From sequence record MW822011: a DNA stretch of 64,000 nt. One strand, 5' to 3'. Under the pieces are notes generated by a model. That model saw only the letters and a program-made list of their open reading frames with translations, ran no database searches and was not told the DNA's origin. This stretch comes from Shigella phage TB004. A program made the position numbers and the translations under genes. Positions within the stretch are counted from its first letter, which is position 1; each line of letters starts with the position of its first letter. Of this stretch, positions 42,307 to 54,817 are shown in pieces.

Positions 42307-44571
42307 ATGCAATTAATTAATGTTATCAAAAGTAGTGGTGTTTCTCAGAGCTTTGACCCGCAAAAAATTATTAAAGTTTTATCTTGGGCAGCTGAAGGAA
42401 CATCTGTAGATCCTTATGAATTATATGAAAATATTAAATCATATCTCCGTGATGGAATGACCACTGATGACATTCAAACCATTGTAATTAAGGCTGCTGC
42501 GAATTCTATTTCAGTTGAAGAGCCTGATTATCAATATGTAGCTGCACGCTGTTTAATGTTCGCTCTTCGTAAGCATGTTTATGGGCAATATGAACCACGT
42601 TCATTTATTGATCATATTTCTTACTGTGTAAATGAAGGTAAATATGACCCTGAACTGCTGTCAAAATATTCAGCAGAAGAAATTACATTTTTAGAATCAA
42701 AAATTAAGCACGAGCGGGATATGGAATTTACTTATTCCGGGGCGATGCAATTAAAAGAAAAATATCTCGTTAAAGATAAAACCACTGGTCAAATTTATGA
42801 AACTCCGCAGTTTGCATTTATGACTATTGGAATGGCATTGCATCAAGATGAACCTGTTGATAGACTAAAACACGTTATTCGTTTTTATGAAGCGGTATCT
42901 ACTCGACAAATTTCATTGCCAACTCCTATTATGGCTGGTTGCCGTACTCCGACTCGACAGTTTAGTTCATGCGTTGTTATTGAAGCAGGTGATTCATTAA
43001 AGTCTATCAATAAGGCTTCCGCTTCAATTGTTGAATATATCTCCAAACGCGCTGGAATTGGCATTAACGTTGGTATGATTCGTGCCGAAGGTTCTAAGAT
43101 TGGTACAGGTGAAGTACGCCATACTGGTGTTATTCCTTTTTGGAAACATTTTCAGACTGCTGTTAAATCATGCTCACAGGGTGGAATTCGTGGCGGCGCT
43201 GCTACTGCTTATTATCCTATTTGGCATTTGGAAGTTGAAAATCTTCTCGTTTTGAAAAATAACAAAGGCGTAGAAGAAAACCGTATCCGTCATATGGATT
43301 ATGGCGTCCAGCTGAATGATTTGATGATGGAACGTTTTGGAAAGAACGACTACATTACTTTGTTCAGTCCGCATGAAATGGGTGGCGAACTTTATTATTC
43401 TTATTTTAAAGACCAAGATCGTTTCCGTGAATTATACGAAGCCGCAGAAAAAGATCCTAATATTCGTAAAAAGCGTATTAAAGCACGTGAACTGTTTGAA
43501 TTACTCATGACTGAACGTTCAGGAACAGCAAGGATTTATGTGCAGTTCATTGATAATACGAATAACTATACTCCATTTATTCGTGAAAAGGCACCTATTC
43601 GTCAGAGTAACTTGTGCTGTGAAATTGCTATTCCAACAAATGATGTGAATAGTCCTGATGCTGAAATTGGATTGTGCACGTTATCTGCATTTGTGTTGGA
43701 TAACTTCGATTGGCAAGACCAAGATAAAATTAATGAATTAGCAGAAGTTCAAGTTCGTGCTCTTGATAATCTTTTGGATTACCAAGGATATCCAGTTCCT
43801 GAAGCAGAAAAAGCTAAAAAGCGTCGAAACCTTGGCGTAGGTGTTACTAACTATGCAGCTTGGCTGGCAAGTAACTTTGCTTCTTATGAAGATGCTAACG
43901 ATTTAACACATGAACTATTTGAGAGATTACAGTATGGACTCATTAAAGCATCCATTAAGCTCGCCAAAGAAAAAGGACCTTGCGAATATTATTCAGACAC
44001 TCGTTGGTCTCGAGGCGAATTACCTATCGACTGGTACAATAAAAAGATTGACCAAATCGCAGCTCCAAAATACGTTTGTGACTGGTCGTCGCTGCGGGAA
44101 GACCTTAAGCTCTTTGGCATCCGTAATAGCACATTATCAGCACTTATGCCATGTGAGTCATCTTCCCAAGTTTCTAACAGTACAAACGGTATCGAGCCTC
44201 CACGTGGACCAGTCTCGGTTAAAGAATCAAAAGAGGGTTCCTTTAATCAAGTCGTGCCCAATATTGAACATAACATAGACCTATATGATTATACATGGAA
44301 ATTAGCTAAGAAAGGTAATAAACCTTATCTTACGCAAGTAGCTATTATGCTGAAATGGGTATGTCAATCAGCTTCAGCGAATACATATTATGACCCGCAG
44401 ATTTTTCCAAAAGGAAAGGTTCCAATGTCAATAATGATTGATGACCTTTTGTATTTTTGGTATTTTGGCGGAAAAAATTTCTATTATCATAATACCCGCG
44501 ACGGTTCTGGTACTGATGATTATGAAATAGAAACTCCAAAAGCTGAAGATTGTTCATCCTGTAAATTATGA
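42307..44571 (+). CDS. nrdA: ribonucleotide reductase alpha subunit NrdA (754 aa)
   Basis: MQLINVIKSSGVSQSFDPQKIIKVLSWAAEG; ATP-cone plus class Ia RNR motifs; length equals T4 NrdA. Confidence 0.95.
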   Translation: MQLINVIKSSGVSQSFDPQKIIKVLSWAAEGTSVDPYELYENIKSYLRDGMTTDDIQTIVIKAAANSISVEEPDYQYVAARCLMFALRKHVYGQYEPRSFIDHISYCVNEGKYDPELLSKYSAEEITFLESKIKHERDMEFTYSGAMQLKEKYLVKDKTTGQIYETPQFAFMTIGMALHQDEPVDRLKHVIRFYEAVSTRQISLPTPIMAGCRTPTRQFSSCVVIEAGDSLKSINKASASIVEYISKRAGIGINVGMIRAEGSKIGTGEVRHTGVIPFWKHFQTAVKSCSQGGIRGGAATAYYPIWHLEVENLLVLKNNKGVEENRIRHMDYGVQLNDLMMERFGKNDYITLFSPHEMGGELYYSYFKDQDRFRELYEAAEKDPNIRKKRIKARELFELLMTERSGTARIYVQFIDNTNNYTPFIREKAPIRQSNLCCEIAIPTNDVNSPDAEIGLCTLSAFVLDNFDWQDQDKINELAEVQVRALDNLLDYQGYPVPEAEKAKKRRNLGVGVTNYAAWLASNFASYEDANDLTHELFERLQYGLIKASIKLAKEKGPCEYYSDTRWSRGELPIDWYNKKIDQIAAPKYVCDWSSLREDLKLFGIRNSTLSALMPCESSSQVSNSTNGIEPPRGPVSVKESKEGSFNQVVPNIEHNIDLYDYTWKLAKKGNKPYLTQVAIMLKWVCQSASANTYYDPQIFPKGKVPMSIMIDDLLYFWYFGGKNFYYHNTRDGSGTDDYEIETPKAEDCSSCKL

Positions 44572-53067: not shown

Positions 53068-53403
53068 ATGTCTGAAGTACAACAGCTACCAATTCGTGCT
53101 GTCGGTGAATATGTTATTTTAGTTTCTGAACCTGCACAAGCCGGTGATGAAGAAGTTACAGAATCAGGACTTATTATCGGTAAACGTGTCCAAGGTGAAG
53201 TTCCTGAACTGTGTGTAGTTCACTCTGTTGGTCCTGATGTTCCTGAAGGTTTCTGTGAAGTTGGTGATTTGACTTCTCTTCCAGTTGGTCAAATTCGAAA
53301 CGTTCCGCATCCTTTTGTAGCTCTGGGTCTTAAGCAGCCAAAAGAAATTAAACAAAAATTCGTTACCTGTCACTATAAAGCTATTCCGTGTCTTTATAAG
53401 TGA
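53068..53403 (+). CDS. 31: co-chaperonin gp31 (GroES-like), 111 aa
   Basis: length and position next to rIII as in T4. Confidence 0.85.
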
Positions 53404-53550
53404 TATAAATAATAATATGAATTGGGTGTCGGAATAATAAGTTAACCGAACGATTCTACGTGGTAGTCTACAACTGAGAGATCTGTCGAAAGAAGATGAA
53501 ATTCAGAAGAACGTGACTACCGAGTTTTAATCTCTAACGAGAATTTTTAA

Positions 53551-53799
53551 ATGATTAAACAATTACAACACGCTCTTGAACTGCAACGAAACGCATGGAA
53601 TAATGGTCACGAAAACTATGGCGCATCTATTGATGTTGAAGCCGAAGCTCTTGAAATCCTGCGTTATTTCAAACATCTGAATCCTGCTCAAACTGCATTA
53701 GCTGCTGAGCTTCAGGAAAAAGATGAACTTAAGTATGCTAAGCCTCTGGCTTCTGCTGCACGAAAAGCAGTTCGTCACTTTGTGGTAACACTGAAATAA
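53551..53799 (+). CDS. rIII: rIII lysis-inhibition accessory protein (82 aa)
   Basis: length and position as in T4. Confidence 0.8.
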   Translation: MIKQLQHALELQRNAWNNGHENYGASIDVEAEALEILRYFKHLNPAQTALAAELQEKDELKYAKPLASAARKAVRHFVVTLK

Positions 53800-54197
53800 T
53801 TTATTGGAGATTCACTGCCTTAGTGTGAGCTAAAATCGAGGAGCCATCGAACTGTCTGATTAATGATTTGCGAATCATTATAGTTTTAAGACCCCGGCAG
53901 TTTTATGGTGTACCTCTTGAATGTTATTCTTATAGCGGCAAGTGCATGCTACCCCGAGGTGATGGCCAATCGGGAGTACGCCTCAAGGCCTATATATCCA
54001 TCAGTATATATCTTATCCTCGAGAAATCGAACCCGGAACCTTTAAGCTAACGGTGTGCAACAGATAAGAGCTATAAGGTATGATGACGGGTTTATGGTTA
54101 TCCTGGTCGTTAAATATTCAAAAACCTATGTTCCCCTTGAGGGCTTGCGCAGGCAATGCCAATAAGTCCTGCATTTTCATTTAAAAGAGAATTTATA

Positions 54198-54374
54198 ATG
54201 GCAAAACAAGCTAAAGCAAAGAAAGCAGTTGAAAAGAAAGTTGGTGATTCTAAACGCGCTGGTTACAAGCGTGGGTCGAACTCTCGTATCAATCAAACTG
54301 TTGAGAAGATCATGCGCCGAGCACGTGCGGTTCTTCGAGATGATGCTTCTCGTTTTGGTAAGCAGAAAGCATAA
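54198..54374 (+). CDS. small highly basic protein (58 aa)
   Basis: MAKQAKAKKAVEKKVGDSKRAGYKRGSNSRINQTVEKIMRRARAVLRDD; followed by a strong terminator. Confidence 0.45.
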   Translation: MAKQAKAKKAVEKKVGDSKRAGYKRGSNSRINQTVEKIMRRARAVLRDDASRFGKQKA

Positions 54375-54378
54375 GTTG

Positions 54379-54404
54379 AGGACTCCTTCGGGAGTCCTTT
54401 TTTA
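54379..54404 (+). terminator. rho-independent terminator (UUCG hairpin plus T-run)
   Basis: aggactccttcgggagtccttttttatttt. Confidence 0.7.
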
Positions 54405-54426
54405 TTTTCCAAAGATTGCATAAAGT

Positions 54427-54484: not shown

Positions 54485-54817
54485 ATGAAAACGATTAATC
54501 TGAACGCTACAGTTAAAACTAAATGCTTCAATGGTAAATATGATGAAACTATGTGGTTCTTAATGGCAGTTGAAGGTGATATTATTGAAGTAGAAACAAC
54601 AGAAGGTATGGGAACAGATTTCACCTTTACAATTCAAGTTCATAATTTCTTTACTGGTTGGATTTATGAATTGAATACAGTAATCGTTGGAAAAATTGAA
54701 CAAAATGAATTAGGTGAATGGTATTATGTTACAGCTCGCCAACGTGCAGAACGCTTAATTGAGAAGATGAAAAAAGTTGGTAAACTTGACATGCAGCACT
54801 GGAAAGTAGTAAAATAA
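54485..54817 (+). CDS. hypothetical protein (110 aa)
   Basis: ORF track; ggagaataaa SD. Confidence 0.5.
   Translation: MKTINLNATVKTKCFNGKYDETMWFLMAVEGDIIEVETTEGMGTDFTFTIQVHNFFTGWIYELNTVIVGKIEQNELGEWYYVTARQRAERLIEKMKKVGKLDMQHWKVVK

Follow-up and report, generated by a model that had tools for sequence, protein, structure and literature searches.

What occupies the 398-nt spacer between rIII and gene 30.9 of Shigella phage TB004? The initial annotation of this DNA (MW822011; the window, i.e. the whole stretch that was analyzed, is 64,000 nt long) described a G+C-richer gap holding a perfect 8-bp hairpin and no convincing open reading frame (ORF). As candidates it named a structured non-coding RNA, a replication or recombination site, and the eroded remnant of a horizontally acquired element.

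The DNA is that of a T4-like phage (Tequatrovirus type), in which genes 31, rIII, 30.9 and 30.8 all lie on the + strand. Genes were assigned from the ORF list, PHROG and Pfam matches, and 99% identity to annotated phages. The features of the locus are as follows.

53068-53403, + strand: gene 31
53404-53550: spacer between 31 and rIII, 147 nt
53404-53411, + strand: TATAAATA, upstream of rIII, a perfect match to the T4 late-promoter consensus (sequence match)
53551-53799, + strand: rIII, 82 aa, left border of the gap (ORF; phrog_1457, E=4.7e-44; T4 annotation)
53800-54197: spacer between rIII and 30.9, 398 nt
53800-53932, + strand: module A, a T-even-specific spacer, near-identical in T4 and not alignable with other genera
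53861-53880, + strand: 8-bp hairpin UAAUGAUU-UGCG-AAUCAUUA followed by UAGUUUU, within module A and identical in T4
53933-54073, + strand: the core, a conserved structured RNA of 141 nt (covariance-model match of 170 bits, E about 1e-39)
54080-54117, + strand: module H, a hairpin plus UAAAUAU, a separate conserved module in the alignments that T4 has too
54130-54191, + strand: 30.9 leader, kept in all genera including T4
54130-54149, + strand: CCC hairpin block GUUCCCCUUGAGGGCUUGCG of the 30.9 leader
54149-54172, + strand: stem GCAGG/CCUGC of the 30.9 leader
54174-54191, + strand: hairpin over the ribosome-binding region of 30.9
54198-54374, + strand: gene 30.9, 58 aa, very basic, right border of the gap (phrog_1427, E=2.3e-31; annotations of T4, KP179, PEi26 and LZ9)
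54378-54399, + strand: intrinsic terminator after 30.9, the first terminator-like site 3' of the core (promoter/terminator scan)
Between 30.9 and 30.8: spacer of 110 nt
54485-54817, + strand: gene 30.8

The limits of the spacer were set at 53800 and 54197 because rIII, whose PHROG family is described as a lysis inhibition accessory protein, ends at 53799 and the conserved ATG of 30.9 lies at 54198. The program-called ORF of 30.9 starts at an ATG at 54156 and encodes 72 aa; the annotated homologues all use the ATG at 54198 and encode 58 aa. gp30.9 has no Pfam family, and its sole family match, phrog_1427, has no function assigned. The sequence TATAAATA, which we take to work as a late promoter as in T4, is likely to be one source of the transcripts running through the gap. 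The promoter/terminator scan revealed neither sigma-70-type promoters nor terminators within 53800-54197, and it gave 30.8 promoter-like sites of its own. Two sub-threshold Rfam matches at 54330-54413 (Atu_C8, 31 bits; Phe_leader, 21 bits) were rejected, as they correspond to the terminator of 30.9. In MZ170040, MZ681930, OR352950 and other records, a small ORF in or beside the spacer is labeled '1,4-alpha-glucan branching enzyme, GH-13-type', which looks like annotation noise.

The gap is indeed richer in G+C (41.5%, compared with 35.6% for the window), falling in the top 4.3% of all 398-nt windows. This excess comes wholly from the core, which has 48.2% G+C (top 0.7% of 141-nt windows); the parts of the gap flanking it have 37.6% and 37.9%, average for the window. 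Among the G/C runs that had drawn attention to the gap, cgggag and cccgg lie inside the core, whereas ccccgg lies outside.

The fold of the core

A first fold, computed with RNAalifold on 18 distinct sequences, yielded seven helices and 37 pairs, with compensatory changes in 23 of them. For the refined statistics, 22 distinct sequences were aligned with a covariance model and P3 was extended after a search of all columns. The resulting fold has seven helices with 42 base pairs in total, which build a four-way junction carrying an internal loop and a three-way sub-junction; P1, P2, P4 and P5 meet with zero linker nucleotides and thus form a perfect four-way junction. Its elements are listed below.

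53933-53936 / 54070-54073, + strand: P1, compensatory changes in 4 of 4 pairs (AU/UA/GC/CG)
53937-53939 GGC / 53988-53990 GCC, + strand: P2, 3 bp, invariant
53940-53947, + strand: 5' side of the asymmetric internal loop, AAGUGCAU, nearly invariant columns
53982-53987, + strand: 3' side of the internal loop, CUCAAG
53948-53981 (53948-53960 / 53965-53981), + strand: P3, a long hairpin with a conserved bulged A, compensatory changes in 7 of 13 pairs
53991-54010 (53991-53997 / 54004-54010), + strand: P4, a 7-bp stem with a variable 6-nt loop, compensatory changes in 4 of 7 pairs
54011-54069 (54011-54017 / 54063-54069), + strand: P5 arm enclosing P6 and P7, compensatory changes in 6 of 7 pairs
54019-54021 / 54028-54030, + strand: P6, loop GAAA in this window, compensatory changes in 3 of 3 pairs
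54031-54035 / 54051-54056, + strand: P7, compensatory changes in 2 of 5 pairs, the other 3 invariant
J7/5, + strand: joining strand UGCAAC in the P5 arm

Paired cells made up 96.9% of 922 in the 22 sequences. The shuffled control reached 81.6%, with none of 500 shuffles attaining the observed value, and moving the partners by 1-3 columns left 29-43% paired. Both-sided changes were found in 26 of the 42 pairs and in every helix except the invariant P2, part of this signal representing a few inherited events, since the sequences are only modestly diverse (about five clades, many members nearly identical). For example, one pair of P4 is C-G in 12 sequences and U-A in 10, and columns 17-60 of P3 are C-G, U-A or A-U in all 22. 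G·U outnumbered A·C by 51 to 4 cells, which places the fold on the + strand, the strand of all flanking genes. These statistics demonstrate the structure of the core RNA: they show that the predicted fold is maintained by selection, and that the unit of conservation is exactly the predicted P1-closed structure. Covariation thus strongly supports the proposal of a structured non-coding RNA.

The all-against-all column search for further tertiary pairs or pseudoknots returned only the P3 extension (17-60 and 18-58); its other signals track the two-clade split and were rejected. P1 can be extended to 53930-53936 / 54070-54076. Several pairings suggested by eye (UGCA with UGCA, AAGG with CCUU, and CCUCAAGG of the core with the downstream CCUUGAGG) were discarded, as the variants in Cronus, EK29 and K41P2 do not co-vary. 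The loop of P6 is variable and mostly GNRA-like, and it is not GNRA in Pseudotevenvirus, which leaves a likeness to a GAAA tetraloop receptor (UAUGG/…AAG) unsupported.

Invariant positions cluster in the internal loop, the P7 loop and J7/5, and the peripheral loops are variable. The internal loop has the near-invariant consensus AAGKGCAU / CUNANG and lies in the arm that bears the long P3 hairpin; the P7 loop comprises 15 near-invariant nucleotides, GAACCUUUAAGCUAA. From the alignments, we infer that this pattern is the one expected for a specific tertiary fold or a binding surface.

The core matches no curated RNA family. Rfam 15 (4227 models) gave zero matches in the 64 kb at the gathering threshold and, at E values up to 10, nothing meaningful on the core, whether the query was the 1.1-kb region, the core alone or seven divergent homologous loci; the overlaps with the core were at chance level only (mir-879, 12 bits; nos_TCE, 16.7 bits; ceN114, 12.9 bits). 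ARAGORN found no tRNA or tmRNA gene in the window, and the Intron_gpI model for group I introns found no match, the core being intergenic and not within a gene. Keyword and exact-sequence searches of 8 million papers and preprints returned no description of the core.

Comparative genomics has brought to light orphan structured RNA motifs of bacteria and phages (Weinberg et al. 2010, PMC2864571; Weinberg et al. 2017, PMC5737381; Fremin et al. 2023, PMC10690425). The core resembles them in being defined solely by conservation and covariation, with a complex junction and invariant loops, in being phage-borne and in having no assigned function. The third of these papers catalogues 10,006 unnamed viral RNA candidates in bulk, and its text contains none of the terms T4-like, Tequatrovirus, Straboviridae, Myoviridae, rIII or Klebsiella; such a catalogue could include the core. 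We rate the core as a new RNA family, because it is unrelated to anything curated, a rating based on comparison with the curated families.

Among T-even RNAs, rnaC and rnaD of T4 (species 1 and 2) are likewise small and structured, with about 120-140 nt and no assigned function. However, they share no homology with the core and map to another locus in a phage that lacks it, and the family covariance model gave no match in the tRNA/rnaC/rnaD region of T4 (MT984581 68500-74500).

Distribution and relocation of the core

BLAST of the gap against 50,697 phage records resolved it into three blocks, each distributed differently. The core was found in 407 phage records at 408 places, nearly always one place per record, and is the only covariance-model match in the window, even with filters off. 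All carrier hosts are Enterobacterales, save for one Karamvirus labeled as an Aeromonas phage. Of the phages of Escherichia, Shigella, Yersinia and Salmonella with a record matching the gap, about one quarter are carriers. Most copies of the core sit between rIII and 30.9. Klebsiella phage KP179 (Jiaodavirus), Edwardsiella phage PEi26 (Kanagawavirus) and Citrobacter phage Moon (Moonvirus) share only the middle block with the window (about 91-94% identity), likewise between rIII and 30.9. With the window as reference, the core is 78-94% identical in other genera, compared with 66-75% for rIII and 59-87% for 30.9. No copy was found in 5,426 E. coli genomes or in 72,556 plasmids; in 185,579 GTDB species genomes, a first pattern scan gave 0 matches and a second gave 3, all of which failed the covariance model. 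A host origin of the core is not supported by these searches.

The middle block that is present here is precisely missing in T4, which forms an empty site: both flanks are kept and exactly the P1-bounded unit is lacking, as judged by alignment and by the covariance model. T2 lacks the core by BLAST coverage. The order of the modules differs between genera.

This window: A - core - H - CCC
KP179, EK29, PEi26: H - core - CCC
IMG/VR contig L049: CCC - core - H
T4: A - H - CCC

Relative to the core, module H is upstream in KP179, EK29 and PEi26, and downstream in this window, Moon, PG7 and Cronus.

A second context is found in Pseudotevenvirus-type phages (K41P2, GAP161, Olmo, JC221 and IMG/VR contigs), which carry a divergent copy (103-112 bits) after uvsY.-2 and before the convergent uvsW.1. 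Between the copy and a bidirectional terminator downstream lies a tail of 180-390 nt that lacks a conserved ORF; this tail is partly like the 30.9 leader, with no 30.9 ORF. A late-promoter-like NNTAAATA lies 5-8 nt upstream of P1 in these phages. Because it matches the consensus at 6/8 to 7/8 positions, the core looks like a gene of its own there, whose transcript may start right at P1.

The third context is PKM.Lu.22.1 (Grimontviridae, 76 kb), which carries an 85%-identical copy as an insertion of ~155 nt. Its 97%-identical sister PKM.Hi.22.6 has 6 nt at the same site and no core, and phage 7-11 has no core either. The insertion separates the stop codon of an SSB-like gene, which it follows directly, from the terminator of that gene, and this terminator is already present in the empty-site sister. 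Comparison of the two sisters identified no T4-like protein gene acquired together with the core: they otherwise differ by HNH endonuclease genes, located about 2.7 kb or more from the core, and by small resident-type ORFs, so that the idea of a co-acquired partner protein was rejected. The other segments found only in PKM.Lu.22.1 include two HNH homing-endonuclease ORFs (43847-44179 at locus L055; 2332-2841 at locus L056, OQ829281.1), and PKM.Hi.22.6 has unique segments too, including an endonuclease VII-like gene.

These comparisons demonstrate the distribution and mobility of the putative RNA, and they show that the P1-closed unit, as delimited by alignment, is gained, lost and relocated as a cassette among Enterobacterales phages. 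The proposal of an eroded, horizontally acquired element is borne out in its second half, since the core forms an indel in the comparison with T4 and moves between phage lineages, but not in its first: the core is intact and under strong purifying selection.

What the core RNA may do

We infer the function, expression and partner of the core from these comparisons. Our preferred reading, to which we give a probability of about one half, is that the core is a self-contained, horizontally mobile RNA that would act independently of its flanking genes via a host factor or ligand. It would belong to the rIII/30.9 transcript (+ strand) and would present its invariant loops to a partner, which would be host-supplied or a small molecule rather than a T4-specific protein; if the core were catalytic, the RNA itself would take the place of the partner. 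The invariant loops do not point to any particular partner. The three unrelated contexts, one of them without a downstream gene and one a recent solitary acquisition, argue both against a dedicated cis-regulator of 30.9 and against dependence on a T4-specific protein. The function is probably accessory and dispensable, because the core is sporadic (about one quarter of T-even-type records) and absent from T4 and T2. Separate accumulation of the core RNA, or its action in trans, would be a prediction of this reading; the RNA might just as well work in cis on its own transcript, because the core of Tevenvirinae has neither a promoter nor a terminator of its own.

Few viruses have been studied as closely as the T-even phages, and the core would nevertheless have stayed invisible in the reference phage, as T4 (and, by BLAST coverage, T2) lacks it. 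If functional, it would enlarge the T4-like gene pool by a complex structured RNA, and RNA folds, besides protein genes, would circulate as accessory cassettes between unrelated phage families. T4 (empty) and window-type phages (filled) would then form a natural test pair, as would PKM.Hi.22.6 and PKM.Lu.22.1. At 141 nt, the unit is of a size that allows biochemical and structural work on it directly, whether it serves as a host-factor decoy, ligand sensor, ribozyme or antiterminator.

More specifically, and tentatively, the core may be a new class of mobile phage 'accessory RNA', a self-contained fold that is swapped like an anti-defense gene among Enterobacterales phages and serves as a decoy or mimic of a host component, or as a ribozyme of a kind not described before. 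The host component that is sequestered or mimicked would be a defense protein, a nuclease or a signaling nucleotide.

A cis-acting transcript element, which we consider rather unlikely, would act on the RNA polymerase or mRNA that carries it, as a processive antiterminator, a stabilizer or a processing signal, and on this rather doubtful premise would work anywhere if sense-oriented upstream of a terminator. HK022 put, which consists of two simple stem-loops, and the Bacillus EAR element are self-contained, portable folds that act on the host machine without phage proteins and need sense orientation upstream of terminators. The core shares with them that it is self-contained, portable and sense-oriented between a promoter and terminators, a weakly discriminating likeness, but it matches them in neither sequence nor structure, nor does it resemble the antiterminator families in Rfam. 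Every copy of the core is sense-oriented in a transcription unit upstream of an intrinsic terminator, at a distance of about 305 nt here, about 45-50 nt in PKM.Lu.22.1 and 180-390 nt in Pseudotevenvirus-type phages, and all carrier phages would have host RNA polymerase in common as a partner. However, nearly any intergenic site is close to a terminator, and orientation discriminates weakly. In addition, read-through in Pseudotevenvirus would give only antisense RNA to uvsW.1, and 30.8 has the promoter-like sites noted above.

A new class of self-cleaving ribozyme that processes its own transcript appears unlikely, although several features of the core would suit one. A compact junction fold, invariant loops and sporadic intergenic occurrence are typical of small ribozymes in phage DNA; twister-sister and hairpin ribozymes in particular have a four-way junction with conserved internal and terminal loops and are sporadic in phage intergenic DNA. 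The core likewise combines a compact four-way-junction fold, near-invariant nucleotides in its internal loop, terminal loop and junction, and variable peripheral loops with a sporadic, context-independent distribution and sense orientation in phage intergenic regions, its catalysis being putative. On the other hand, no known ribozyme class model in Rfam matched it, the search with the core alone included, and 141 nt with seven helices is large for the class. Moreover, the Pseudotevenvirus transcript may start at P1, where cleavage would be of little use.

That the core is a riboswitch or protein-responsive leader controlling translation of 30.9 is, in our view, improbable. In most carriers the core lies in the 5' untranslated region of 30.9, followed by a leader with conserved hairpins, one of them over the ribosome-binding site, and its conserved fold with invariant junction and loop nucleotides is aptamer-like. 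However, T4 keeps 30.9 and the entire leader without the core, the core lies on differing sides of the leader modules among genera, and the Pseudotevenvirus copies have neither 30.9 nor a conserved downstream ORF. The core thus occupies three unrelated contexts rather than a constant 5'-leader position before coherent genes. Nor was a co-evolving, overlapping expression platform found, as judged from the terminator of PKM.Hi.22.6, the T4 leader and the module order: because the terminator next to the PKM.Lu.22.1 copy pre-exists in the sister, it is not a co-evolved platform, and an antiterminator/terminator switch in PKM.Lu.22.1 was rejected for the same reason.

It is very improbable that the unit acts as DNA, be it as a recombination or homing hotspot, an origin or a MITE-like repeat, with an RNA fold that is incidental or forms in single-stranded DNA. 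The ERIC, REP and MITE-type repeats of enterobacteria have about 130-150 nt, lie in transcribed intergenic DNA, show presence/absence polymorphism and form a stem at the RNA level. The core is like them in size, intergenic insertion and presence/absence polymorphism; its borders are sharp, one of its sites adjoins uvsY/uvsW, and HNH endonuclease genes are among the differences between the PKM phages. Unlike these repeats, it is single-copy and phage-only, with a selected multi-helix interior: neither multiple copies (408 places in 407 records) nor conserved terminal inverted repeats were found, the terminal stem P1 covarying instead, and the host genomes and plasmids searched contain none. The HNH genes lie at the distance given above, and the seven helices are kept by compensatory changes with a G·U bias that fits a transcribed strand. 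The suggested replication or recombination site therefore gives way to a + strand transcript, which the compensatory changes and the G·U asymmetry indicate.

A short protein-coding gene, missed by annotation or frameshifted, has a negligible probability: ORFs of 25-60 aa do exist within 53800-54197, those of 46-60 aa overlap the region and several GenBank records label it 'hypothetical protein', but all six frames are interrupted by stops in several homologues, the homologues differ by indels of 1-6 nt, and substitutions are paired across stems and not placed at third codon positions. The original view that the spacer has no convincing ORF, which a conserved protein-coding gene would have overturned, is thus borne out, with no conserved ORF in the spacer and no frame open across the core homologues. 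Covariation, strand bias and frame analysis effectively exclude both the DNA element and the missed ORF.

The remaining modules of the spacer

The perfect hairpin singled out at the outset exists exactly as described: TAATGATTTGCGAATCATTA occupies 53861-53880 with 8 perfect pairs and a TGCG loop. By itself it is unremarkable, because 20 perfect 8-bp hairpins of the same kind occur in the 64 kb, and it lies outside the conserved core in a T-even-specific stretch. The terminator scan did not call it as a terminator; it may be a weak 3' structure for rIII.

Apart from the core, the spacer between rIII and 30.9 is a mosaic of small conserved RNA-hairpin modules whose order is shuffled between genera, and T4 has these modules without the core. 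In Cronus, the CCC hairpin shows a compensatory swap from C-G to G-C, seen by eye in the alignment. Together, module H, the CCC hairpin, the long-range stem and the hairpin over the ribosome-binding site may form a putative autoregulatory leader for gp30.9.

Gene content also varies at this locus. In phage LZ9 (FN868251.1), which carries the core, the gene order is rIII, 30.9, 30.6, without 30.8 and 30.7, a further sign of the high plasticity of the 30.x region.
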